Both the position numbers and the translations under genes were made by a program. A stretch of 62,826 nucleotides of DNA from positions 1 to 62,826 of the forward strand of contig JBGSMV010000034.1 in the NCBI GenBank assembly GCA_041739995.1, in the 5' to 3' direction. Below the pieces are notes generated by a model. The model had not been told where the DNA came from, made no database searches, and saw only the letters and a program-made list of their open reading frames with translations. Shown here piece after piece: positions 2,255 through 57,282 of the stretch (position 1 is its first letter; each line of letters starts with the position of its first letter). Source of the stretch: Bdellovibrionota bacterium (GTDB lineage Bacteria > Bdellovibrionota_C > UBA2361 > JBGSMV01).

Positions 2255-3712
2255 ATGACGACTTCGCCTGATTCCCCTGTAGCCCTTCGACAGTTTCTGG
2301 AGATCCCCTATGACGAGCTCGAAGAGTTGAATTTGCAGGCGAAGGAGAGACAGCTCTCAAGGCGGAACCTCGCGGAGCACCGAGACCACTATGTGAAATA
2401 TCTTTCGGAAGAAAAGCGCTTAAAGGCGGTGACGGTAGGGTTTACCGATCTCGAGGGGCGCTTTCACATGCTGGACTACGACAAGAAATTTCTGTTGAAG
2501 TCCTACGACAATCTTACCTTCGATGGATCCTCTGTACGCGGCTTTTCAGTAGTTCGAGAATCCGATCTGCGATTGGAGCTTGATTGGGGAAGTTTCCGGT
2601 GGTTGCCGTCTGATGTTTTTGGTCCCGGAAAAGTACTGGTGTTCGGGCTTATTCGATCTCAGGACGGAACAAGTTACTCTTCTGATATGCGCGGGCGTCT
2701 CAAGACGTTCCTTGAGGAGCTTCATCAGAAAGATAGCACCACCGCGAACATCGCAGTCGAATGCGAAGGCTTCTTGTTCGAGGGACTGAATGCAGAGCAA
2801 GAGTTCTCCGAAGCAAATCAATTCAAGCTTGTGTCCTCGGGAGGTTACTATCACAGCCTTCCACGCGACCGGCTAAAACTTTTCATTGATGCACTCGCGG
2901 AGGCGCAGCGCGCGCTCGGCTTTGAAAACGAAAAAGATCATCCAGAAGTAGCGCCCTCTCAGTTTGAACTGAATTATAAGTACACCGATGCACTGCTCGC
3001 AGCCGATCAAATTCAACTCTACAAGCTCACGGCAAGGCAGATTGCTGCAAACATGGGTCTTACAGCGTCGTTTTTGCCTAAGCCTATCGCGGGAATTAAT
3101 GGCAGTGGAATGCATGTGAATTTGTCTTTGACGAAGGCGGGGAAAAATCAGTTCTGGGATCCGAAAGGCGAAGACAAGCTCTCTGAGCCTGCTTGGAATT
3201 TTGTCGACAGGCTCTTGAACAACGCTAACGATATTTGTCTCGTGCTCAATTCGAGCGTTAACGCTTATCGCAGACTAGATCCGCACTTTGAGGCACCTAA
3301 TCAGATAAAGGCTTCCGCAGTGGATCGCACCTCTATGGTACGAATTCCTCTTGGGAACGAGCAGTCTGCCCGAGTCGAGGTGCGTACGGTCGCTCCGGAC
3401 GCGAATCCCTATATGGCGCTGCTATGTATTCTTGGTACGGGCTTGAACGGGCCCATGACTGAGGCGCTGAATTCAGAGAATCGCAGAACGAGAACCAGGT
3501 TCTTGCCTGGGAATATCCACGATGCGCTTCGACTTATGAAGGGAAGTACTTTCATAGCCGAGCTTCTGGGTGAGGAGAATAAGGAGAAGTTTCTTGAGCG
3601 TAAGAGCTTCTCTGCAGACCGTTGCCCCAAGGAATTGGGAAATGCAGTGAAGGTGAGCGAAGTCATCTTTCACCATGATGTAACTAATCAATATCTGCTC
3701 TCGAAGTTTTAG
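2255..3712 (+). CDS. glnA: Glutamine synthetase family protein
   Basis: FDGSSVRGF, HPEVAPSQFE, PKPIAGINGSGMH, NAYRRL, RVEVRT..PDANPY motifs; GAGG RBS. Confidence 0.9.
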   Translation: MTTSPDSPVALRQFLEIPYDELEELNLQAKERQLSRRNLAEHRDHYVKYLSEEKRLKAVTVGFTDLEGRFHMLDYDKKFLLKSYDNLTFDGSSVRGFSVVRESDLRLELDWGSFRWLPSDVFGPGKVLVFGLIRSQDGTSYSSDMRGRLKTFLEELHQKDSTTANIAVECEGFLFEGLNAEQEFSEANQFKLVSSGGYYHSLPRDRLKLFIDALAEAQRALGFENEKDHPEVAPSQFELNYKYTDALLAADQIQLYKLTARQIAANMGLTASFLPKPIAGINGSGMHVNLSLTKAGKNQFWDPKGEDKLSEPAWNFVDRLLNNANDICLVLNSSVNAYRRLDPHFEAPNQIKASAVDRTSMVRIPLGNEQSARVEVRTVAPDANPYMALLCILGTGLNGPMTEALNSENRRTRTRFLPGNIHDALRLMKGSTFIAELLGEENKEKFLERKSFSADRCPKELGNAVKVSEVIFHHDVTNQYLLSKF

Positions 3713-3734
3713 CTCAGCTCTTTAGTGGGAGGCA

Positions 3735-3773
3735 GGGTAGGGCGGTCGGCACGAGAAGTCGCCCCGCCTACCC
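3735..3773 (+). terminator. GC-rich hairpin downstream of glnA
   Basis: GGGTAGGGCGG...CCGCCTACCC inverted repeat. No clear U-tract. Confidence 0.4.
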
Positions 3774-3904
3774 AGAACGCATTTCGCTGTCGGCTTTTGA
3801 AAAAGTCAGATTTTGCTTCGAAATCTTACCACAGCTCTGTAAAGTTAGGACGTCTTTGATGTATCTCTCACCTGCCTTTGTGGGGCGTATTCCTAGGAGT
3901 TCGT

Positions 3905-4603
3905 GTGGTAAAGCGACCAGCTACTTTCTATTTCGCTGCTGACCTGTTTAGCAGTCGTGCGCTCTTTGGAAATGCAGCACTTGCTGATGCCATTCAGCGC
4001 GCGAGCGGAACGAGTGAGCGCTATGAATTCAAAGTAATTCTCCCGCAACTTTGTGAACCAAGAACTGAGTCCGCCAGGGCAATTCGAAACGCAGATATTC
4101 GCTCGGTGGTGCAGGCTGATGCGGCTGTGTTCGTGTTCGATGGTATGGAGCTTGATAGTGGAATGATCGCTGAGTTCATGGTCGCTAAATTCTGTGATAT
4201 TCCGTCAGTTATATTGAGAACAGATTTTCGTAGTTGCGGCGAGCACCCAGAATGCCCTTGGAATGTGATGCTCGGATTCTATCCGCGTTGCTCTGTGGTG
4301 CAGCTCAACTCAATGAAAGAATATAAAGACCTGATCGCAGCTCAAGGGGAGGGTCGGGTATCTGCCCGCAACAGAGATGCGGCGCGTGACTCCATAGAGG
4401 CGCTTCAGACTTTCATGGATTCGATTGGAGCTTCGGTGGCGCAAGCGCTGGATAAAGTGATGCGCATACCTGCAACCATGCCTGAAGAATTGCGGGAGCC
4501 AGTCTATCAATGGGTTCGTCAGTTTCCTGGAGCGGAGTTTGATGCGGAACTCTCGGCGGAGGATATTTCAGAAGTTATTAAGCGACGATTCGAGGCTAAA
4601 TGA
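3905..4603 (+). CDS. Nucleoside 2-deoxyribosyltransferase / nucleotide N-hydrolase family protein
   Basis: YFAADLFS, LPQ, D..SV..AD, DSGMIAE and LRTDFR motifs. GTG 3905 follows AGGAG. Overlaps the rbsK start by 4 nt. Confidence 0.75.
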   Translation: MVKRPATFYFAADLFSSRALFGNAALADAIQRASGTSERYEFKVILPQLCEPRTESARAIRNADIRSVVQADAAVFVFDGMELDSGMIAEFMVAKFCDIPSVILRTDFRSCGEHPECPWNVMLGFYPRCSVVQLNSMKEYKDLIAAQGEGRVSARNRDAARDSIEALQTFMDSIGASVAQALDKVMRIPATMPEELREPVYQWVRQFPGAEFDAELSAEDISEVIKRRFEAK

Positions 4604-20444: not shown

Positions 20445-21668
20445 TTATCGAAACAGCTGCAGCCCTATGCGGTTAAATGCCTCTGGTAGTACTGGTATGG
20501 GGTCCACATCAAGGTGCTGCGCTAGAATCTGTTCAAGCACTTCGCGGAAGTCGAATTTTACGGGGACAAACGGCTGAGTGAAGTCTGCCTCAGTGTAGGC
20601 AGGGGACCGAACGCCACCTTGAACGCGAGTGCCAATCAGAACTTCAGTCGTGCCTTGACCATGGTCTGTTCCTGCCGATCCATTCTCTACGGTTCTTCCG
20701 AACTCGCTTCGCATGCTGATTAAAACATCTTCAGCGCGCCCAACCGCGGACAGATCATTCCAGAATACTCCGACTGCTTGATCGAGCTGCGTCAACAACG
20801 GCGGAAGCGCCGTCCCCTGGAAGGCATGAGTGTCGAAGCCTCCTAGGCGTATCATGATATGTTTGACGTTGATTACGTCCGACTTGAGTAGCTGAGAAGC
20901 GATGCGAAGATTGCGCCCAAGTCCAGTATTCGGATACGGCCCAAGGGTTTGACTGCCGGCGAGTACGGTAGTCAGTAAGGCGGATTGAGCTTCCATCGTG
21001 TCCCAGGCATGATTCATGCGCTGCGCATCTTCGCTCAGCAGCACGGGGCCACGTTCACGAAGAAGTCGAATTACTTCGTTCCGATAGGCGAGGTCGTATT
21101 CGGTAAGCGCCGAGCTGTCCGGCAGCCCAACTCGACCAGTCGAATCGACAGTGGTTACATCGAATGCACCGCCCGTTAACTCAGCGCCGCCCGGCCCCAC
21201 CGCAAAAAGGAGCGGTGCTTCTGCGGCATCGCAGTGATGCTGCCCATAACGCAGCATCCACCCTGATGAGACAAGAGGCGATTCTGTAGTACGTCCTAGA
21301 AAAGTTCGAGCTTCCAAATGAGACTGACTGTGATTGGGGTATCCCGCGCCATACAGCAGCGCGAGCTGTCCCTGTGCACGAATTGTATTAAAGCTAGTCA
21401 TGAGCGGATGTAGCCCGTGAATCGCATCAATGGGGATTGAGTTTGTAATTCCGAGAGTAGGATGCGCTGCAAAGTAGGATGAAGTTCCGCGCGGCACCAA
21501 GAGAGAGGGGCCATGTAGTCCGCCATCGAGAAATATCGTCACTACGGCGCGTCGATTTGCGGTACATGCGGACTGTCCCAGCGCAGATTGTAACGGTGCG
21601 GCGAGCGCATACATGCTTCCGCTTCCTAGTGCTGTGCTAAGGCCCTTCAGAAGTTGCCTTCGGTTCAT
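20445..21668 (-). CDS. DUF1501-family protein with Tat signal
   Basis: MNRRQLLKG, GYPNHSQSH, GGFDTH, SEFGRT, GTDHG. Confidence 0.9.
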   Translation of the reverse strand: MNRRQLLKGLSTALGSGSMYALAAPLQSALGQSACTANRRAVVTIFLDGGLHGPSLLVPRGTSSYFAAHPTLGITNSIPIDAIHGLHPLMTSFNTIRAQGQLALLYGAGYPNHSQSHLEARTFLGRTTESPLVSSGWMLRYGQHHCDAAEAPLLFAVGPGGAELTGGAFDVTTVDSTGRVGLPDSSALTEYDLAYRNEVIRLLRERGPVLLSEDAQRMNHAWDTMEAQSALLTTVLAGSQTLGPYPNTGLGRNLRIASQLLKSDVINVKHIMIRLGGFDTHAFQGTALPPLLTQLDQAVGVFWNDLSAVGRAEDVLISMRSEFGRTVENGSAGTDHGQGTTEVLIGTRVQGGVRSPAYTEADFTQPFVPVKFDFREVLEQILAQHLDVDPIPVLPEAFNRIGLQLFR

Positions 21669-21684
21669 AACGTTAGACTCCGTA

Positions 21685-24000
21685 TTAGTGCACCTGAAAA
21701 AACTGCGGGGTTAGTGTAATAAAATGGAACATTCTTGTGAGCTTATCCAAGAGCGCCGCATCGTTCCCAGGCCAAGGGTCTGAAATAGTGCCCGAAGCGG
21801 TACGACGAGTCTGTGCAAACGTGAGAATAAGATCGCGCTGCTGGGGTGTGAGCTCAAGAGCAAGAGTAGCGAGGAGATGATCGAGCGTTTCCGCTGCCGT
21901 TGCAGTTGGAGACGGAAGAAAGCTGCGCAGGTTGACAAGTCCCATATTCATTTCGGACCAGGCATACCCAGTGAGGACAGAATCACCACCTGTGATCATG
22001 GAGCGAAGGGATACAGCGCTGTTGAGAATCCGGCTACCTAATGGCATCTCGAGAGCTCGATCGCAGCCGAACACCGAATCTGGATCGGTCAGCACGCAAC
22101 CAAGGGATCGGTACGGGTCGCCTCCGTTGCCGTCATAGTTCACCACATTTTCCGGATCTCCGATCAAAACATTTATGGCGCGCGCTAGGTGTACCTGGCG
22201 GAGCGAAGGATGCTTAATAATTGCCAGGCGCCGCTCAGGTGCGTAAAAGTACTGAGAACTTAGCAGGCGCTCAAAAGCTGCGCGAAGATTAAAGTCCGAG
22301 CCATATATTATGCTTGCAAGTTCCGAGATTACGGCACCGTTACTATCATTACCAAAGTATTCGCGTGCCAGCCATTTTGCGAGGCTCGGTGCTGCGTTTG
22401 GATGATGATCGAAGATGTGATTCACCACATCGCGACCCGTAACCACCTGCGCCTGCCACGAAGTTCCTGCAAAGATAGTCTTAGTTCCTGGGTCAAAGCG
22501 AGCTGGAGTGAAGTATGAGTAGTACCGGAACTCGAGCGAGGTGTTGCTACCAACTTGCCATCCGGTAAACGCGCGCCCGATTTCTCGGATATCATCGAGG
22601 GTGTAGTTCGGATTCCCGTTCGAGTCCGCGGTATCAAGGGTGAAGAGCTCCATGAGTTCCCGCGCGTAATTCTGGTTTGGCGATCCCACGGTGTTGTCTA
22701 CTAGGTTTAACCACTGCATCATCAGCGGATCTTCTCCCATCTCTAGTAGGAGCGTCCGGTAGTCCAAGTCTCGCGCTCCAATTTCTCGCAGCTTTAAAAG
22801 ATGCGGCATCGACATGCGTGCATTGCCTGCATCGGAGGAGGTCGCAAGACGGTCATGCAGCACAAACCACATGAAACGCTCGTGGAACTGATTTTGAGTG
22901 CGCGCCAGAAGGGCATGCGCGTAGTAGCGAAGTCCCGAAATATTGATGGTAGAATATCCCTCATCAGGTCGCCCATCGAGCCAGTTCCGGGCGCGGCGCT
23001 CGGCATACGAGTCTTCGCGAAAGGTCATGAAAAATTGCACTAATTGCTGAATATTCCCACCAATAAACTCGTACGCCTCCGGCGGTGGAACAAAGAGTCC
23101 AGCCCGACGATATAGGTGGTTAATGTCGTCTCGCGTTACTGGCCGCGATAACGGAGCGAGATATCCTCCTGCAGGGGGCGTGGGCGTTATGGTGGGCGTA
23201 GCAGTTCGCGTTGGGGTTTGAGAGGGAGTGGGCGATACCGTACTTGTCGGCGTTCTTGTGCGAGTAGGAGACGCCGTCGCTGTTCGAGTAGCGGTGCTAG
23301 TCGGCGTTCTTGTGGGAGTGCGAGTAGCGGTACTAGTCGCAGTTATTAGTGGAGTATTTGTTCGTGTTGGAGTTCTAGTAGGAGTGGAGGTCTGTGTTGC
23401 CGTTCTTGTCGGAGTACGGGTAGGGGTGCGGGTATGCGTACTTGTCGCAGGAACAGTGCCACCCACAGTCGGAGTGCGTGTAGGTGTTCGTGAGGCTGTG
23501 GCCGTTCTTGTCGGCGTCCTGGTGGCAGTTTGCGTTGGAGTCGCACTCGAGGTTACGGGTGGAGCGGACGTGTTTGTGGCGGAGACAGTAGGGAGCATTG
23601 TTGCTGTAGGCTGCGGAGTTCCCGGCTCCGGTAAGCGAGGAGTAGGACTTGCGCCTAACGGAGCACGGTCCAGAGCGGCGCAAAGAGCTCGCGTCACCGC
23701 AAACTCTTTTTTCAATAAACGTAGTTGACGACGTGCTCGCACACGAAGCTCAGAAGGCATGCGCCGAACGGACTTCTTTCGGTTCTTTATTATGTCCAGG
23801 TAGCTTTTAAACTGTTTGCGCTTGCGCTTCACCGCTTCAAAAGCACCATTGGTGTCGCGACAGTAAAAGAGGCGTTTGCCGGCACGCACTTCAACTATTT
23901 GGTTGTTCGTGCCCGCCACGAACCCTTGCGCCACTGCTTCTCCTGGCGCACTCGCGGCACTGAGAAGAACGATAGCCAAAGACAAGAACATCTTTCGCAT
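21685..24000 (-). CDS. DUF1800-family protein with signal peptide, basic N-domain and ~160-aa Thr/Pro/Arg linker
   Basis: [31 protein letters not shown], terminal PQFFQ. Adjacent to DUF1501. Confidence 0.88.
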
Positions 24001-40699: not shown

Positions 40700-42025
40700 A
40701 TGAGACGTTTTCAGACATGGTTCCGAGCTGCAGGGTCACTTTTGATCGCTGTCGCGTATTGCGTAAATAGCTTCAATGCAGAGCCTGCGAACGCCGTGGC
40801 TGCAGAAGCACCCGAACGCCTTTCGGTCGCCGAGCTTCAGCAGCTGGTCGATCCGATTGCGCTCTACCCCGATAAATTGCTGCAAAATATTTTAGCGGCA
40901 TCCACCTTCCCTGACCAACTGATCGATGCGGCACTGCTGATAAAAACGCAAGATGACCCCAAGATGATCGAAAAGCACAACTGGGACACCTCAGTAAAGA
41001 TTATTGCGAGCTATCCAGGCGTGCTTGGAATGATGCATAAGAAAATTGGCTGGACCACGTCGCTTGGCGAAGCGTTTATGAATCAGCATCGAGATCTCCT
41101 CGCCGCCATTCAAACACTACGTCGCCAGGCAAAGGAGAGCGGCGAGCTTGCGTCGGATGAGCATCAGAAAGTCACGGCTGAAAAAGCGGACACTGGTACT
41201 CAAGTGATCGTAATTGAGTCACAAAATCCAGAAGTAATTTACGTGCCGTCCGATCCTGTCTATGTGAGTTCAGGGGGGAGCTATAACAATAATAATGACT
41301 CGTTAGTGCCGCTTGCCACGTTTGGTCTTGGGCTTGCTTTAGGTGCTGCGATGAGTGACGACGACGATGACCACTATTACTATGGTGGCTGGGGTGGTCC
41401 CTCGTACTGGTACAATGATTCTCCCTATAACCAATGGGCGGATAATCGGCGTGAGGCTTGGGAAGATCATAATGATCGTGCTTGGGATCGACAGGATCAC
41501 CGCCAGGACCAGCAACGTGATCGACAAGATTTTCGCCAGGATCAGATCAAAGACGGAAATTGGAATCCGCCTAGCGCTGAACAGCGCAACGCCGCGAGGC
41601 AGAACGCGACGGATAGACAGGCTGTTCGTAGCAATACGAACGTGCAAGACCGAGCCAACACGGCGCGGGCGAATAACACGGGCGGACTCTCTGGTTCTAA
41701 TGGCAGTTTCTCAAGGTCCGGTTCTTCGAACGCCTATACGCGTACAGCGGCATCCAGTAGCTATTCTCGTAGCGGCCCGAAAAGCATCTATTCGGGAAGC
41801 TCCGCATCTCAGTCGCGAGGTTGGTCAACGCAATCAGCATCACGTACACAAAGTCGCTCTGCCTTTTCTGGTTATAGTTCCCGAAGCCAAGTGAGTTCAT
41901 ACGGTTCACGTGGGTTTTCAAGTCGCAGTAGCGCCGGATTTTCACGCGGTGGTGGTGGCGGGTTCTCCGGTGGCGGCGGTCGCGGTGGCGGTGGTGGTCG
42001 AGGTGGCGGCGGCGGACGTCGGTAA
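40700..42025 (+). CDS. DUF3300-family protein with Ser/Arg/Gly-rich tail
   Basis: LVDPIALYPDKLL.NILAASTFP, WDTSVK, LGEAFMNQ, PEVIYVP. Confidence 0.88.
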   Translation: MRRFQTWFRAAGSLLIAVAYCVNSFNAEPANAVAAEAPERLSVAELQQLVDPIALYPDKLLQNILAASTFPDQLIDAALLIKTQDDPKMIEKHNWDTSVKIIASYPGVLGMMHKKIGWTTSLGEAFMNQHRDLLAAIQTLRRQAKESGELASDEHQKVTAEKADTGTQVIVIESQNPEVIYVPSDPVYVSSGGSYNNNNDSLVPLATFGLGLALGAAMSDDDDDHYYYGGWGGPSYWYNDSPYNQWADNRREAWEDHNDRAWDRQDHRQDQQRDRQDFRQDQIKDGNWNPPSAEQRNAARQNATDRQAVRSNTNVQDRANTARANNTGGLSGSNGSFSRSGSSNAYTRTAASSSYSRSGPKSIYSGSSASQSRGWSTQSASRTQSRSAFSGYSSRSQVSSYGSRGFSSRSSAGFSRGGGGGFSGGGGRGGGGGRGGGGGRR

Positions 42026-42082
42026 CCCTAAACCCCATAGACCTCGATAGTATAAATATGCAGTGCGAAGGAGATGTGAGCT

Positions 42083-43042
42083 ATGAAGCGTAATGCGATT
42101 CTAGTGGGAGTGATGAGTGCTTTGTGGGTGTCGTTGGGGACCGTGCATGCGGCAATTCCCGAACCTAAGGTGTTTAGGACGCCAGAAGAAGCAGCCATAC
42201 AGCTAATCGAATCAATGGGCACCAACGATCCTGCACAATTGAAATTGATTTTTGGACCAGGGTCAGAGGATGTTATCTCGTCAGGAGACCCGGTGGCGGA
42301 TCGTGCCTCGCGCAAGATGTTCGTCGCACTCGCGGCCGAGACCTATGACGTAGAGACTGTTGAAAGCGGGAATGCCACTTTGGTACTTGGCTATCGCGAG
42401 TGGCCCTTTCCCATTCCACTCGTAAAGTCAGCCAAGGGCTGGTCGTTCGATGTGAAGCAGGGTGCAGAAGAAATTCTCGATCGTCGCGTGGGAAAGAATG
42501 AGTATAACACCATCGATTCGCTTAATGCGTTTGTTCAGGCGCAGAAAGACTATTTTGAGCTGAAGCCAAACGGTATTGCCGAGTACGCCCAGCGCCTCGG
42601 AAGCACGCCGGGTAAAAAGGACGGGCTTTTTTGGCCACGTAGTCCCAAGGAAGCAATCAGTCCACTAGGACCACTAGTCGTCGAAGCGATGGCCGCGGGC
42701 TATAAGACGCGTGAAGATGCTTTACGTGCGTTTCATGGCTACCACTATCGCATCTTAACACGCCAAGGCGCTGCAGCACCGGGTGGTGCGCTGGATTACT
42801 TGGACGCTGAGAAGCGCCTCGCCAAAGGCTTTGCGTTCTTGGCATACCCCGTAGATTGGGGCACGTCTGGAGTAATGTCATTTATCGTGAATAAGGATGG
42901 AACTATTTACGAAAAAGATCTTGGGTCGAAAACTATTGCTGTTGCTCAGGCCATGACGGAGTACGACCCAAGCAAGGGATGGAAGGCCGTAAAAATGGAC
43001 GAAGAAGAGCCTGAGATGTTTCAGTCAAAGGATGACGCTTAG
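42083..43042 (+). CDS. DUF2950-family protein
   Basis: SGDPVAD, WPFPIPLVK, RRVGKNE, DGLFW, FHGYHYRIL, SGVMSFIVN. Usual partner of DUF3300. Confidence 0.9.
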   Translation: MKRNAILVGVMSALWVSLGTVHAAIPEPKVFRTPEEAAIQLIESMGTNDPAQLKLIFGPGSEDVISSGDPVADRASRKMFVALAAETYDVETVESGNATLVLGYREWPFPIPLVKSAKGWSFDVKQGAEEILDRRVGKNEYNTIDSLNAFVQAQKDYFELKPNGIAEYAQRLGSTPGKKDGLFWPRSPKEAISPLGPLVVEAMAAGYKTREDALRAFHGYHYRILTRQGAAAPGGALDYLDAEKRLAKGFAFLAYPVDWGTSGVMSFIVNKDGTIYEKDLGSKTIAVAQAMTEYDPSKGWKAVKMDEEEPEMFQSKDDA

Positions 43043-48367: not shown

Positions 48368-49675
48368 CTATTGCAGTAGCAGCAAAGCCAGCGAAGGCTG
48401 GGTATTCGCCTGGGCTAGGATGCTCGCCCCCGCTTGCTGAAGAATGCTCTTCAATGCCAGGTTGGCAGTCTCGGCGGCCATATCGGCATCCACAATTCGA
48501 GAACGCGCCTGCAGCGATGCTTCGCGACTCCCGTTCGCTAGTTGAAGAGCGCTGAGTAGTCTGCTTTCAAGCGCCCCGTAGTTTCCCCTTAGAGCGGACA
48601 AGTCGTTGAGCCGAGACCTCACCACGCCGAGTGACGACAGTGCTCTTGAAACTGTATCCACTCCGCTGAAGTCAATCGCACTACCGTTCCCCGCGTTCGC
48701 TCCTTGGGTGAGAAAGCGCAAGCCCGTAAGGTCGAGTGAAACGCCCCATGTACCGTTCGAAACGGTGTACGTTGTGCCGTTGTATACGGAACCATCCGCG
48801 GGATTGATTAGATGGTTGCCACTGCCGCTCAGAAATTCGAACTGATTTGCCGCTGCAGAAATTGGGGTCCAGACCTCGGAACCTTCGCTGCGGTAAAAAG
48901 AGATTACACCGACGGTGTCGGCACCAGGTGCATTCCAGTACCCGTTAATGAAGCCGACTGCTACCTCGACCTGTTCTCCGGTATCGGTTGTGGTGGTGGT
49001 AAAGTACACTTGGTCTCGAAAAGCAGCTCGCAGGTCTTCCTCGGTTGGCGTTCCAGAGACGCCAAAGGATAGAAATGCGAATATGTCACCCACTGCTACC
49101 CCACCGATTCCATCCCAATCTGGTGTAGCCAAAGTGCTTCGATTGATTATTCCGCTTAAGCTTGCCGTATCCGCCGAGGTGGAGGTAATGCGAGCAGAAG
49201 AAGAACCATTAATCCCGACTTGCAGATCGAGCAGCGACAGTCCGTTGGCGCGAGTTCCACGTAGCAGTGAGAGTCCATTGAAAGTAGTGGAGTCACCCAG
49301 TCGCCCAAATTCCTTAAGTAACTGCTGATACTCAACATCAAGGCTGCGGCGTTGCGTGCTCGAGTAAGATCCATTTGCTGATTGTTCAGCGAGCTCGGCA
49401 AGGCGATTTAAAATTCCGCTCTGCTGATCGAGAACGCCATTTGCAATGCTTATCAGTGAGAATCCATCACTGATATTTCGAGCAGTAGCGGAGTAGAGGC
49501 GCGCATCCGCGCCAAGGCGCTCCGACACAGCAAGGCCCGCTGCGTCGTCGCTGGCCCGATTTATGCGCATACCGCTACTGAGTCGCTCGAACGTGCGACT
49601 TAAAGCTTCTGAGTTTTGCGCGAGAGATCGTTGCGCACCTAACGATGCAACGTTGCTCCCAATTGTAATGGGCAC
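48368..49675 (-). CDS. fliC: Flagellin (orphan)
   Basis: RLSSGMRINRASDDAAGL N-domain and SRIVDADMAAE...LAQAN C-domain. Probable GTG start at 49675. Confidence 0.9.
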   Translation of the reverse strand: MPITIGSNVASLGAQRSLAQNSEALSRTFERLSSGMRINRASDDAAGLAVSERLGADARLYSATARNISDGFSLISIANGVLDQQSGILNRLAELAEQSANGSYSSTQRRSLDVEYQQLLKEFGRLGDSTTFNGLSLLRGTRANGLSLLDLQVGINGSSSARITSTSADTASLSGIINRSTLATPDWDGIGGVAVGDIFAFLSFGVSGTPTEEDLRAAFRDQVYFTTTTTDTGEQVEVAVGFINGYWNAPGADTVGVISFYRSEGSEVWTPISAAANQFEFLSGSGNHLINPADGSVYNGTTYTVSNGTWGVSLDLTGLRFLTQGANAGNGSAIDFSGVDTVSRALSSLGVVRSRLNDLSALRGNYGALESRLLSALQLANGSREASLQARSRIVDADMAAETANLALKSILQQAGASILAQANTQPSLALLLLQ

Positions 49676-50179
49676 TGTAAAACCACACCCAATTTTGCAG
49701 CTGAGCAAAAATCGTTGCTCATCAGCCTCTTAGATCGGGTGTTCCAGGAAGTTTCTAAAGAAAGATCGGAAGCTCTAAGAGGTCTGCTTAGGAGCATCTG
49801 TTTGTTCTATCGGCGCGGAGAGTTGGGTGTAGACCAAACTTGAAGCGAAGCAGAGAAATAGGAATGGTGACTTCTCGTAGCGGCTATCATTCTCCTGATC
49901 TGAGAGTGGAACAGTGTGAGCGCTGAAGGGGATGATCGTGAGAAATGTGAGGCATGCTGGGCAGTTGGGCTATTGTCGCGCAAACATCCATGGCGCTCGT
50001 TCGGACCTCTGTCGCCCTTTCGCACTTCGCGCGGGTCCGAAAGGTGTCAGAGACCTTTGGTTTTTGCGAGGCCAAATACTCATATTCTGTCCTCAATTGT
50101 CGTTACTAGAGGCGAGAACCGCCCAAAGGAGTGGGGGATCTAGGAAGTTTTCGTAACATGGCAGTTACGCTTGGAAGCA

Positions 50180-52388: not shown

Positions 52389-55019
52389 TTAACACCCCTC
52401 GAACCAGCTACTCAAGAAAGCGAAGATATCCGGCACTGCCACTTGTCCATTGCCATCGAAGTCTGCAGCCATGCTCTGCGCAAACCAAGCGGAGAGAAAT
52501 ACGAAGATGTCAGTCGTATTCGAAACTTGATTGCCGTCAAAGTCCGCCGGGCAGATGTTTTGACTCCCCTCGATTTCGTACACGGCATAGTTATGAGTAG
52601 TATCATTTTCATTAATTTCATCGAATCGCCCACCAACATGCAGCCGATCTCGGCTTGAATCAAACAACACACGTCGTACGCGGTAGTCCAAGTAGTTATT
52701 CGCATCTGTGCCAATAGCTGGGCCTACACCACTGACACTCGGACTCCAGTTGCTCGGCTCACCGCTCGTCAAGTCGACTGCCATTAGATGATTTGCGGGA
52801 TTCAATGCGGAAGAAACCGCAAGATGTCCACCAACATAAAGTCGGCTTCGCCCGTGATCCAGAGCGAGGCTGTGAATTCTCGCACTACCTGCAAGCCCGG
52901 TGTTCGGATTCCATGCCGTTACTTGCCCATTCGCGATTGAAATGGCAGCCAGTCGATTGCGCGGCTGTCCACCAATGACGGTAAAGTCTCCTCCGGCATA
53001 GAGAAGTTGGCTAAGCGGATCAATTACAAGCGCATAAACGAAAGAACTGAAGCTACTCCCTGATAAACTTGTCTGAGGATTCCAACTTAAAAGTTGGTTA
53101 GTGACGGTGTCGAATGATGCTAAACTGCTTCGCGCCTGTGCGCCCATCAGGCTAAAATTCCCGGCGACGTAAAGTTGATCGCTCGCTTCGTCGAGCGCCA
53201 TCGCGGCAACGACACTATTGGGATACCCAAAAAATTGCGTCTGATTGACTGCAGTATTGATTGATGCAAGCCGATATACTGGTCCGTTGTCGGCGTTTGA
53301 CGCAGGGATAATAGCGCTATAGGTCATTCCGACAAACAACTTTGCATGTTCATGATCAAAAATCATCGATGTGGGAGAATCCGGCTTATAGGTAGCCGGG
53401 TTTATTCCGGATCCGTTGACGATATCCAGTACAAGTGGTGTCGCAAGTCCAGTGCTCGTATGCAGAGCAGCAAGGCGTGTTCTTGCCTGTCCCCCGATGT
53501 TTGCGAATGTCCCGCCGGCATAAAGAGTATTGCCCGAGGGATCAATTGCCAATTCATAGACCACACCATCAGCATTGGGATTGAAGTCGGTGGCGCGCCC
53601 AGTGAGATTATCAATCGCGGCAATATAATTACGCCGATCTCCCTGCAAGATCATAGCTCCACCGCCGATATATATATTATCCCCTGCAGAGCTTGGAGCT
53701 ATAGAGCGAACAAATTCAAAATATTTGTTTTGTGCTGGATTCCAAGTCGACACTTCGCCAGTCAAAGTGTCGAACGCCGCAAGGTTCTCTCTGTCGAGAC
53801 GGCTCGCAGATCCATTGTCTCCGATCCAGGAGAATTTGCCGCCGACATAGAGAGTATTTGAAGCGCCAAGGGATAAAGAGTGTACCGTGCTGCCTGCGGG
53901 ACCCACATACGAGTTCCACGCCGTGGTCAGACCGGTTTGAGTATCAATGGAAGCAAGATTATGTCTTAACTGACCTCCAATTCTTGGGAAGCGTCCGCCG
54001 ACATAAAGTCGATTGTGCGTCGAATCGAATGCAAGAGTTCTTACATGGGTTCCTGGATCCATCGCTGGGTTCCAGGTGGTGACCTGTCGATTTGAGGTGT
54101 TAAGAGAACCAAGCGATTCTCGGCTTTGACCTCCAAGTGAATCAAAATCACCACCCACGTAAAGAATCTGATTTGCGCTATCAAGTGCGAGCGCCAAGAC
54201 GCTATATCCGGGAGTTTGGCTTAGATAGGAAACCTGCCCGCTCCCAATATCGACAGCAGCAAGGCAATGTCTATTGCCCGCCCCTGCATAGAGTCTGCCC
54301 CCGACAAAAAGGGAGTTGGTGGTGGCATCGAGCGCAAGGCTATAGACCGCAGATCCCGATTGCAGTAGTTGAGTCCCGGGAGTCCAAGGCAACACCTGGC
54401 CGGTAGCCGGGTTCACCGCAGCAATCCTATTTCTCGTTTGGCCTCCTACCGTGGTGAATGTGCCGCCAATATAGAGGACATTCGTTTGAGGATTGAGCGC
54501 AAGCGCATGAATTGAGCCGTTTTGATCCAGACTGAACTGAGCGTCTAAGCTACCGTTTGGCAAAATGCGCGCAATTCCGCTCCTTAGCTGCCCGCCAACT
54601 TTGGAAAAGCGCCCCGCCACAAACCAGCCGCCAACTCCGTCGGAGATGGAAACTTGAACCCGACCAGAACCTCCAGAGACCCGGGCAAAGTTTGCGGGGG
54701 GATCGCCGGCAGAAGCGCTCAACGGCACTCCGTGTCCAGCGTTTGGGCCAACAAGATTAAATGTGCCGCCAATGTAGGTTATTTCATTCGTCGGAGAGTT
54801 AACGATTGAGTACGCAGGGCCATTGGTTATCCACATGCGGTCAGATGGCAGTTGAGATAGCTCCGCTACGCTGAGAGCGGGGTCTTCTGATTCTATCCTG
54901 CTAGCTTCCAGCTTGACTGAAGTTGAATCGGTATTTCGTAGGGGGGCGCTTTCCACGCTTGATGGCGTGAGCCAGATATTAGGAGTGAGAAGTAATGCTG
55001 AAATAATCAAACGTTTCAT
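52389..55019 (-). CDS. Secreted beta-propeller repeat protein with C-terminal dockerin-like (GC-type) domain
   Basis: More than 10 repeats of LYVGG.F..IGGQ.R..LAA....TG....WNP; tail CPADFDGNQVSNTTDIFVFLSAWF...ADFDGNGQVAVPDIFAFLSSWFEGC. Confidence 0.85.
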   Translation of the reverse strand: MKRLIISALLLTPNIWLTPSSVESAPLRNTDSTSVKLEASRIESEDPALSVAELSQLPSDRMWITNGPAYSIVNSPTNEITYIGGTFNLVGPNAGHGVPLSASAGDPPANFARVSGGSGRVQVSISDGVGGWFVAGRFSKVGGQLRSGIARILPNGSLDAQFSLDQNGSIHALALNPQTNVLYIGGTFTTVGGQTRNRIAAVNPATGQVLPWTPGTQLLQSGSAVYSLALDATTNSLFVGGRLYAGAGNRHCLAAVDIGSGQVSYLSQTPGYSVLALALDSANQILYVGGDFDSLGGQSRESLGSLNTSNRQVTTWNPAMDPGTHVRTLAFDSTHNRLYVGGRFPRIGGQLRHNLASIDTQTGLTTAWNSYVGPAGSTVHSLSLGASNTLYVGGKFSWIGDNGSASRLDRENLAAFDTLTGEVSTWNPAQNKYFEFVRSIAPSSAGDNIYIGGGAMILQGDRRNYIAAIDNLTGRATDFNPNADGVVYELAIDPSGNTLYAGGTFANIGGQARTRLAALHTSTGLATPLVLDIVNGSGINPATYKPDSPTSMIFDHEHAKLFVGMTYSAIIPASNADNGPVYRLASINTAVNQTQFFGYPNSVVAAMALDEASDQLYVAGNFSLMGAQARSSLASFDTVTNQLLSWNPQTSLSGSSFSSFVYALVIDPLSQLLYAGGDFTVIGGQPRNRLAAISIANGQVTAWNPNTGLAGSARIHSLALDHGRSRLYVGGHLAVSSALNPANHLMAVDLTSGEPSNWSPSVSGVGPAIGTDANNYLDYRVRRVLFDSSRDRLHVGGRFDEINENDTTHNYAVYEIEGSQNICPADFDGNQVSNTTDIFVFLSAWFAQSMAADFDGNGQVAVPDIFAFLSSWFEGC

Positions 55020-55155: not shown

Positions 55156-57282
55156 CTATCCCTGGAAGAACACCGCCAAGAAGGCAAAGATATCCGGGGG
55201 AGTTACTGCGCCGTCATGGTTAATGTCCGCCCGTTCTTCCTGAGCAAAGTATGCTGCGAGGAAAGCGAAGATGTCAGCTGGATTCACCGCGCCGTCTTGA
55301 TTGAAGTCCGCGGGATTGGCGCCAGGAGACGAGGAGGGAAGTAGTGCAATCACTTGCTCTGCTTCCATTCCTTCACGCTGAACGATAGCGAGTAAGGTTA
55401 GTTCACCCGCGTCGTTGGCGACCTTGCGCTTCAAGGTATAGGTGAACGGACCATCATAATTCTCGATAACGGCGGTGTCGCCGCTCGCAAAGCGCACGCT
55501 TGTTACTCCGCGAACCACCGGTAATGAGGCTTGACCTAAGCTGTCAATGGCGAGAATAGCAGGACGAACAGTGCCTGGACTGTCCTCAGCTGACCGCACA
55601 CTCACCATCGCAAAGCCTTTGCCATTTGGCAGCGCGAGTCCGCTAACATGATTGCTGCCACCGACTGTTACGGTGTAGCCGTCTACTATATCCCCGTCAC
55701 GAATTGCCAAAGGCGCTTGCCCTGGCACTGCGCGGATAAGAACCCGAGCGTTCGTTGCTTGGTCCTGTGCTCGTACCAACATTGAGCCATCGCGGGCTAA
55801 GCTGACCTGCTCAGGAAAAGGAAAGTTTGCAAGTCCTAGTCCCAACGATGAATGAGCAGACGAACTTTCGAGTGCAACTTCAGCAGTACCGTTGAGCTTA
55901 ATGCGAACGATAGCCCAAGCACTGCGAAGCGAGCCGTTCTCGTTGCTTAGCGACGTAAGGATGTAGAGGTCTCCATTGTCCGCAAGGAAGCTCTTGATGT
56001 AATTAATGGAGTCTCCGACCGTCCCAAAGGCGGTAGTGACTTCATTGAGAAGTCCGATTCTGAAGCGTCCCGAAGGCCCGTCAAAGAGTTTTCCGGCAGT
56101 TGCTTCGAACTTGAGGGAGCCCGTGCGGTCAGAGAAAATTGCATGACCTCCGGTGCAACTTATCCCGGCATTGAATGCGACTTTGCCTGAGCCGTTTACG
56201 TTAAGTTTCGAATACGCGCTTGAGGAAATGGCGCAGTCGGGGGTTGCTCCGTCCGCAATTTGTCCGTCTCTGGCAACAAGCTCTAGCGCACCATTTTGGT
56301 ATCGATAGAGTGCTTGGCCATTGGAACTTGTTACCCCTTCGCCTACCAGTGTCACGCCGAACGCTGCGACTCCATTGTCATTCACATTCCGTACGGTTCG
56401 AAGCGGGTAAGGAAAGGCACCGAATTGGGCTCCGCCTGTAGCAGGAGCAACCTCACCGCTACGCGCAATCTGCTCAACCCCACTTGCACTTTGATGTAGA
56501 ATTGCCGATTCGCTGGCAGAGGAGTTTAGGCTCGCGGCAATAAGTTGCTCGCCTACACGGTTCTCCGGCTCAACCGCGCTAAGGATAGAATGAAGAGGGA
56601 TAGCTCCCAAAGCGGTTTGATTTTGAGCAAGGAGGTCCGAAGATGCACCTTGTTGTACTCGAACAAGCCCGAGCTGATTGCTGGCATTTATTCCAGGTCC
56701 CGATAGGCGGCACATGGTGAGTGCTTCGCCATCCCCGGTTATGGTCGGCTTATACTGCGCGTTAGCGGTCGCAGTAACATCGGCGCTAATATTGCCACTT
56801 ACACTTTGTAGAAGATCTTGGTCGCGAAGCAGATGCTGAACCCCTTCTCCCGCACGATATCGATAGAAGTGACTTGAAAGAGCGCTGTTCGGATCTCCGT
56901 CCCACATCTGTGCGGGAAAAATCACATCGCCTTGCTGATTGATCTGCGGATAAATTCCAGTGCCGTTCCCAATGATAAGAGACAGAAGCATTTCGCCGCT
57001 GGGGCTTGCCGCAGCGATCTCTTGTGACTCTGCGATGACTTGCAGTTCAATCGGTGCAGGACCGCGCAGAACAACCTGCTGTTCTTGTACAGACCCGGGC
57101 TTCGCCCAGGCCGAGGTGGCGATACCACTAGCAAGAAGAAGGGAGAGTCCAAGCGCAAACTTGGATTTCAATTGACTTCGCTGTGGATGTGCTGCGCTGC
57201 TGCTTCGTGGCCGGCACATAAGCCTGGCGACGCTAATATTGCTGGTGTTGGATTTGGCAGATACTGACTTAGCAAACCTCAT
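55156..57282 (-). CDS. Secreted NxxGxxAF tandem-repeat protein with C-terminal dockerin-like domain
   Basis: NDNGVAAF, NGSGKVAF, NQQGDVIF repeats; tail ADFNQDGAVNPADIFAFL...ADINHDGAVTPPDIFAFL. Confidence 0.8.
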   Translation of the reverse strand: MRFAKSVSAKSNTSNISVARLMCRPRSSSAAHPQRSQLKSKFALGLSLLLASGIATSAWAKPGSVQEQQVVLRGPAPIELQVIAESQEIAAASPSGEMLLSLIIGNGTGIYPQINQQGDVIFPAQMWDGDPNSALSSHFYRYRAGEGVQHLLRDQDLLQSVSGNISADVTATANAQYKPTITGDGEALTMCRLSGPGINASNQLGLVRVQQGASSDLLAQNQTALGAIPLHSILSAVEPENRVGEQLIAASLNSSASESAILHQSASGVEQIARSGEVAPATGGAQFGAFPYPLRTVRNVNDNGVAAFGVTLVGEGVTSSNGQALYRYQNGALELVARDGQIADGATPDCAISSSAYSKLNVNGSGKVAFNAGISCTGGHAIFSDRTGSLKFEATAGKLFDGPSGRFRIGLLNEVTTAFGTVGDSINYIKSFLADNGDLYILTSLSNENGSLRSAWAIVRIKLNGTAEVALESSSAHSSLGLGLANFPFPEQVSLARDGSMLVRAQDQATNARVLIRAVPGQAPLAIRDGDIVDGYTVTVGGSNHVSGLALPNGKGFAMVSVRSAEDSPGTVRPAILAIDSLGQASLPVVRGVTSVRFASGDTAVIENYDGPFTYTLKRKVANDAGELTLLAIVQREGMEAEQVIALLPSSSPGANPADFNQDGAVNPADIFAFLAAYFAQEERADINHDGAVTPPDIFAFLAVFFQG

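Follow-up and report, generated by a model that had tools for sequence, protein, structure and literature searches.

The 62,826-nucleotide stretch of DNA analysed here (the window) is contig JBGSMV010000034.1 of the Bdellovibrionota bacterium assembly GCA_041739995.1, a genome of 3.81 Mb in 81 contigs that is 91% complete; below, the genome is called G000 and the window is its contig C28. On its reverse strand lie a flagellin gene and, nearby, genes for two proteins that end in dockerins of the GC type (NF041540; Table 1). The flagellin has Flagellin_N (PF00669) at residues 17–152 (E = 1.1e-32; 113.4 bits against a Pfam cut-off of 26.6) and Flagellin_C (PF00700) at residues 361–445 (E = 1.2e-13; 51.7 bits against a cut-off of 23), and is a bacterial flagellin of the FliC type, of the normal filament-forming kind. 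Translation may instead begin at the GTG codon at 49675, the position at which homologues start, with xITIGSN. The subject of this analysis is PDWDGIGGVAVGDIFAFLS, residues 196–214 of the 446, which lies between the two Pfam domains and therefore in the outer, or variable, region of the protein.

The first-pass annotation of this DNA had described the segment as a dockerin-like repeat, identical at 14 of 18 positions to the C terminus of the neighbouring protein 52389..55019. Translation and alignment agree with that description: against DFDGNGQVAVPDIFAFLS, the second repeat of the neighbour's tail, the segment differs at positions 2, 5, 7 and 11. The likeness that it had drawn to the DIFAFL repeats of 55156..57282 holds as well, as two such repeats occur there and both neighbours match NF041540. 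Among the 24,788 six-frame open reading frames (ORFs) of at least 60 amino acids in the genome, DIF[AV]FL occurs 11 times, ten times in dockerin-type C-terminal tails and once in the window flagellin. A hidden Markov model (HMM) built from 14 dockerin half-repeats of the same genome gave the flagellin as the top match outside dockerin tails (16.8 bits, E = 0.0024), with a paralogous flagellin copy at 14.8 bits and the remaining non-dockerin ORFs at 10.2 bits or less.

Comparison of profiles led to the same place. When an alignment of nine outer domains of the flagellin family was compared by hhalign with one of 17 GC-dockerin tails (window positions 52392–52577 and 55159–55344, plus 15 others), 21 columns aligned to repeat 2 with a probability of 89% (P = 2.3e-6). 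The outer-domain profile, searched with HMMER against 1.84 billion representative proteins, retrieved P0010, a 116-amino-acid GC-dockerin fragment from elsewhere (E = 5.1e-4), of which both repeats were matched, each reading DFNGVGG.TVADIFAFL. An HMM made exclusively from the GC-dockerins of other genomes scored the window flagellin at 9.5 bits, P0011 at 14.1 and P0004 at 9.3. The motif counts, the half-repeat HMM, the hhalign result and the retrieval of P0010 indicate that the resemblance is real and specific; judged by its sequence, the flagellin segment is a single dockerin-type repeat that specifically resembles the GC-type repeats of the neighbouring proteins.

The similarity is old. At the nucleotide level the segment is identical to its two most similar repeats at 34–38 of 60 positions, and where the amino acid is the same the codon is identical in 4–5 of 14 cases, values that rule out a recent gene conversion or a graft of DNA from a dockerin gene. 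Because the synonymous sites are scrambled, the likeness does not reflect recent transfer.

A complete dockerin is a different matter. Scanning the flagellin with curated dockerin HMMs had been proposed at first pass, and neither of the thresholds was reached. The whole protein has no match at E ≤ 1 to NF041540 (cut-off 29 bits) or to Dockerin_1 (PF00404; gathering threshold 22.9 bits), and when the whole genome was searched with NF041540, none of the matches listed falls on the window flagellin's motif. One of nine central domains of the flagellin family matches NF041540 (E = 0.098) and one of 36 family members matches Dockerin_1 (E = 0.081), both below threshold. True dockerin tails give two matches to the half-repeat HMM; the flagellin gives one, at positions 204–221 of the stop-to-stop frame. 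The motif is internal rather than C-terminal, with no nearby cysteine and no Cys/Gly-Cys. The single repeat fits the GC-dockerin repeat profile at the HMM and hhalign scores given above, and to call the segment a half-dockerin is sound. Its 12-residue loop, D197-x-D199-G-x-G-x-V-x-V-x-D208, is rich in Asp and Gly. Of the residues expected in an EF-hand-like loop (acidic ligands at positions 1, 3, 5 and 12, and Gly at 6), it has D197 (position 1), D199 (position 3), G202 (position 6) and D208 (position 12), with Ile at position 5.

The family to which the outer domain belongs is rare and lineage-restricted: searches with the family profile recovered it from 9 of 91 genomes in the order and from 10 of 124 in the phylum, and a genome often has several copies (nine matches in G034, of the same genus as G000). 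The exhaustive HMMER search of the 1.84 billion representatives returned nine proteins at E ≤ 1e-3, eight of them flagellins and the ninth P0010. A word-indexed search of 5.8 billion proteins returned only the flagellin itself and its paralogue (2 among 1,861 candidates), a word-indexed search with the family alignment returned four proteins, and a related-locus search of genome contigs found no relative. The best match of the domain in the PDB has E = 0.59, which leaves it with no solved relative by sequence.

Within this family the motif recurs. G200 (loop position 4) and D208 (position 12) are invariant in the nine-sequence alignment, in which D or N predominates at positions 1 and 3, and many of the 30-odd family members have a DxNGDG-type loop and then a helix at the equivalent site, as in ADWNGIGGISVQDNFDYIAFA of genome G079 and GDYNGDGRVSPGDLGILGSLIG of G081. 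Other members have lost the acidic loop and kept a helix-like stretch, which points to the helix as a structural element of the domain. In a quick IQ-TREE maximum-likelihood tree, the single phylogeny used here, the most dockerin-like motifs fall into two well-supported subclades and loop-bearing members are widely spread; we read the loop–helix as a probably old feature of the outer domain. Thus the motif does recur in related flagellins, a point that the first-pass annotation had proposed to check, whereas the synteny that it had also proposed to look for does not: adjacency is absent in the four other genomes that have both families (G025, G026, G027 and G079), where the flagellin and dockerin genes are carried by separate contigs or, on one contig, are separated by more than 500 kb.

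An AF2 model of the flagellin alone, computed from a 36-sequence alignment (mean pLDDT 85, pTM 0.74), gives the segment the loop–helix form that had been anticipated. The loop spans residues 190–205 and the helix residues 206–218 (VGDIFAFLSFGVS), at pLDDT 84–86, followed by a second helix at 223–229 and then beta strands, with pLDDT 84–92 over the region. This model supersedes one from a four-sequence alignment, in which the outer domain had a mean pLDDT of 45. As the loop–helix is placed confidently in a monomer, no partner is needed for its placement. Helix 206–218 is almost wholly hydrophobic (I209, F210, F212, L213 and F215), from which we infer that it is probably buried. The whole model matches solved flagellar filaments (for example, 9ygu at Z 20.9 and 8jmv at Z 20.5); these fold searches (Foldseek against the PDB, and the wide VIA search) are dominated by the D0/D1 core and are not informative on the fold of the outer domain.

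Table 1. Features of the window that bear on the flagellin repeat
Feature	Position	Strand	Details
Flagellin gene	48368..49708	(-)	446 aa from TTG; Pfam Flagellin_N and Flagellin_C
Flagellin outer (variable) domain as searched	48644..49216	(-)	Residues 165-355
Single dockerin-type repeat, P196-S214	49067..49123	(-)	Loop, then helix IFAFLSF
FG-GAP repeat protein, 534 aa	50773..52377	(-)	FG-GAP_3, 31.5 bits; lies between the flagellin gene and the dockerin-protein genes
GC-type dockerin domain, two repeats, ends ...FEGC	52392..52553	(-)	C terminus of the 876-aa protein 52389..55019
GC-type dockerin domain	55159..55314	(-)	C terminus of the 708-aa DUF7453 / NxxGxxAF-repeat protein 55156..57282

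The two proteins whose tails the flagellin segment resembles have different bodies. The larger is a beta-propeller protein, with Rax2, DUF5122 and PQQ_2 propeller repeats in Pfam, and its tail scores 43.3 bits with NF041540 in hmmscan and 48.8 bits in the genome search. The smaller scores 41.5 bits with NF041540 and 66.8 bits with TIGR05002, matches DUF7453 in Pfam, and reaches 19.7 bits with Dockerin_1, under the cut-off. G000 has 11 NF041540 matches over the cut-off. Most of the 17 aligned GC-dockerin tails carry a Cys just ahead of repeat 1 and a terminal Gly-Cys, a pair that suggests a disulfide clasp closing the domain; the 708-residue window protein ends in ...FFQG, without this frame. 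The FG-GAP protein encoded between the dockerin proteins and the flagellin has no dockerin tail, and its NCBIfam scan gave no match.

In all, 495 GC-dockerin proteins were found at E ≤ 1e-3. The passengers in the best 120 of these include peptidases, multicopper oxidases, propellers, FG-GAP and Ig domains, among others; none of the best 120 carries a flagellin domain, and their source names include Phycisphaerales and metagenome-assembled genomes of Bdellovibrionales/Deltaproteobacteria. A search of the PDB with the GC-dockerin profile returns EF-hand proteins and cellulosomal dockerins at E values of 1e-4 to 1e-3, which ties this class of motif to calcium binding. A full-text literature search found no paper that names the 'GC-type dockerin', and the flagellin motif links flagellins to this widespread C-terminal module for which we found no literature.

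A GCCGATAG box resembling the −10 element of sigma-28 promoters lies at 49807–49814 (-), about 100 nucleotides upstream of the flagellin start; patterns of this type are not enriched within the window (6 observed, 3.9 expected). Elsewhere in the window are two gene pairs of unknown function, DUF1501/DUF1800 at 20445–24000 (-) and DUF3300/DUF2950 at 40700–43042 (+).

G000 has 24 separate flagellin loci by tblastn with the window flagellin, an unusually large family for a 3.81-Mb genome, and many of the loci match at the N or the C terminus only. A truncated paralogue on contig C41 (L003 4119–5042; G000:C41:84118–85041, +) lacks the N-terminal D0/D1; an ORF for an AAA-type ATPase ends just upstream, and a TAA stop cuts off the final ~23 residues. 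The outer domain of this copy is intact, at 74% identity to that of the window flagellin, with the motif PDWDGVGGVAVADIFAFIS; the gene is possibly a pseudogene, or else a silent cassette. Between these two copies nonsynonymous divergence (dN) is 0.19 and synonymous divergence (dS) is saturated, which indicates an old divergence under purifying selection; within the outer domain, dN is 0.10 for the motif and 0.19 for the rest.

Two further paralogues vary the theme. The copy on C54 (L004, about 3132–4496; G000:C54:9131–10495, -) has an FG-GAP-like calcium-loop repeat, DFNNDGFDDLLV, in its outer domain (22.0 bits against a Pfam cut-off of 22.1) and an in-frame TGA between that domain and the C-terminal helices. 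As its calcium loop is of a different kind, such motifs seem to serve the outer domains of G000 as building blocks in general. The copy on C68 (L001, which is G000:C68:1–8000; 3291–4493, -) lacks the N terminus in its open frame, lies 2.1 kb from a GC-dockerin ORF (C68:1043–1189, 28.9 bits) and, at the corresponding loop of its outer domain, matches NF041540 weakly (GSDGSIDNNDQIIYLDYIF, E = 0.65).

The interpretation that we favour, and to which we give a slightly better than even chance, is that the segment is a structural, calcium-binding loop–helix of the dockerin/EF-hand type, integral to the outer domain, probably stabilizing it, and related by descent to the repeats of GC-dockerins. It starts from the sequence relationship, the recurrence within the family and the predicted loop–helix conformation reported above. 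On it the segment has a structural role and is not a working docking module, which fits the incomplete set of dockerin features, the lack of a cohesin match in the genome and the occurrence in G034 of nine flagellin-domain matches with no GC-dockerin. In the ~190-residue outer domain, the first helix would be preceded by the 12-residue Asp/Gly-rich loop, and the two would form one EF-hand/dockerin-type unit, most likely sharing descent with GC-type dockerin repeats. One Ca2+ could be bound via D197, D199 and D208. Flagellin is exported unfolded and its outer domain has to fold outside the cell, where the ion may stabilize it; the strongly hydrophobic helix (I209, F210, F212, L213 and F215) would pack into the domain core.

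Several observations weigh against this interpretation. Loop position 5, usually D or N, is Ile in the window flagellin and Val in its paralogue (the GC-dockerin repeats of P0010 also have Val there), and in some relatives the loop differs in length by at least one residue, a variation that a strict EF-type loop does not usually show. Calcium binding is proposed from the loop residues, and burial of the helix from hydrophobicity and pLDDT, so both keep a conditional place in it. The distribution of the two families counts as well. GC-dockerins over the cut-off occur in 5 of the 9 genomes of the order that have the flagellin domain and in 1 of the 82 that lack it (Fisher P = 1.6e-5, with kin that are not independent); at family level the figures are 3 of 5 against 1 of 16 (P = 0.028, with the same dependence among kin). 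G000 and G079, with the most dockerin-like flagellin motifs, also have the most GC-dockerin matches (12 and 14). In G000, four of six dockerin gene clusters (on C10, C28, C67 and C68) have one of the 24 flagellin loci within 20 kb, against an expectation of 1.0 (permutation P = 0.009), and two of the six have one within 5 kb (P = 0.048). Such co-occurrence and proximity would be consistent, too, with the two families being functionally connected.

The irregularities of the loop could mean that the likeness is convergent: any Asp-rich turn outside the cell with a hydrophobic helix after it can resemble a dockerin repeat, and the segment would have no Ca2+ binding and no ancestry shared with GC-dockerins. 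The near-silence of the curated models would then be expected, as would the missing ligand at position 5 and the variable loop length, and the aligned stretch is only about 21 residues. Against convergence, identity extends well past the ligand positions (V-A-V-x-D-I-F-A-F-L-S), the genome-wide HMM and the profile–profile comparison return E and P values as low as those given above, a GC-dockerin from elsewhere was matched independently across the 1.84 billion proteins, and the pattern recurs in two well-supported flagellin subclades. We regard convergence as unlikely, while giving it real weight.

The co-occurrence bears instead on the proposal of the first-pass annotation that the filament displays a half-dockerin, which would pair with the dockerin tails of secreted proteins or bind a receptor shared with them, so that the flagellum serves as a scaffold or adhesin. 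The part about a single dockerin-type repeat stands, on the HMM and hhalign results; docking, display and adhesion are not supported. In their favour, it is the outer domain that a flagellar filament exposes at its surface, the motif has its nearest likeness in the GC-dockerin repeats of G000 itself (the best match being 2.7 kb away), the dockerin clusters tend to lie near flagellin loci, and between the two paralogues the motif has changed less than the domain around it. But there is one repeat only, without the Cys...GC frame of most GC-dockerin tails, and no cohesin match (PF00963) was found at E ≤ 1 in the 91%-complete genome, a search that divergent or non-cohesin receptors would escape.

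The two families also come apart. Four genomes have the flagellin domain and no GC-dockerin (G034, G014, G030 and G081), G088 has five GC-dockerin matches and no such flagellin domain, and the genes are not adjacent in the other genomes with both. GC-dockerins were not seen on flagellins among the best 120 proteins, and the helix that would have to dock is hydrophobic almost throughout and has a confident placement in the monomer model. A predicted complex of the outer domain with a neighbour's dockerin tail scored 0.02 against a mark of 0.32, in a set without control pairs, and counts neither for nor against docking. We consider docking improbable, and its fuller form a shade more so, in which the filament is a docking platform and the repeat of each subunit completes a dockerin-like unit or competes for the same calcium-dependent receptor. 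Were that form true, thousands of sites per filament would recruit or mimic an anchored exoproteome of propellers, peptidases and adhesin-like proteins, and the uncharacterized GC-type dockerin would gain its first functional handle. That the half-dockerins of adjacent flagellin subunits pair into a two-helix unit, giving a calcium-dependent dimerization of outer domains that stiffens or sheathes the filament, has equally slim prospects: a dockerin fold requires two loop–helix repeats and the flagellin gives one per subunit, outer-domain dimerization is documented in other flagellins (PMC8931119) and the 24 flagellin loci make mixed filaments conceivable, but AF2 places the loop–helix confidently inside the monomer and members without the loop keep the helix.

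A stabilizing calcium loop would be of interest in its own right. Outer domains are where flagellar filaments gain adhesion, enzymatic activity and stiffness, and the one described here represents a rare family, with no solved sequence relative, that carries a recognizable calcium loop of the dockerin/EF-hand type. Should the loop bind Ca2+, it would provide a simple model of how calcium assists a flagellin domain in folding outside the cell; should the repeat dock, flagellar display would gain a new form. We did not find an earlier description of a dockerin/EF-hand-type calcium loop in a flagellin outer domain. No native flagellin dockerin appeared in the literature, judged by titles among the matches listed, and nothing was found that combines a flagellin outer domain with calcium binding; the terms dockerin, calcium, EF-hand and Ca2+ are absent from the main text of a survey of 682 outer-domain clusters (PMC11532411).

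Among known systems the closest is the GC-type dockerin itself (NF041540), which, like the flagellin unit, has a 12-residue D-x-[DN]-G-x-G-x-V-x-V-x-D loop followed by [IL]F.FL. It differs in having two repeats at the C terminus, mostly with a Cys and a terminal Gly-Cys, whereas the flagellin has one internal repeat without Cys, and in its passengers, which are peptidases, oxidases, propellers and others. Cellulosomal dockerins work as duplicated pairs that bind a cohesin. The type I members (PF00404; 1ohz_B and 2ccl_B) and EF-hand loops have a loop–helix architecture in common with the flagellin unit, one that binds calcium in their case and putatively in the flagellin; they differ in having a cohesin partner, of which none was found in G000, and in a family model that the flagellin does not match at E ≤ 1.

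The remaining comparison is with flagellins that have specialized outer domains. Proteolytic flagellins were reportedly described by Eckhard et al. in 2017, and outer domains that dimerize are known (PMC8931119). These are enzymes or self-associating beta domains, unlike the outer domain here, and what it shares with flagellins of this kind is their plan, in which the D0/D1 core is conserved and the surface domain set between Flagellin_N and Flagellin_C is specific to the lineage.

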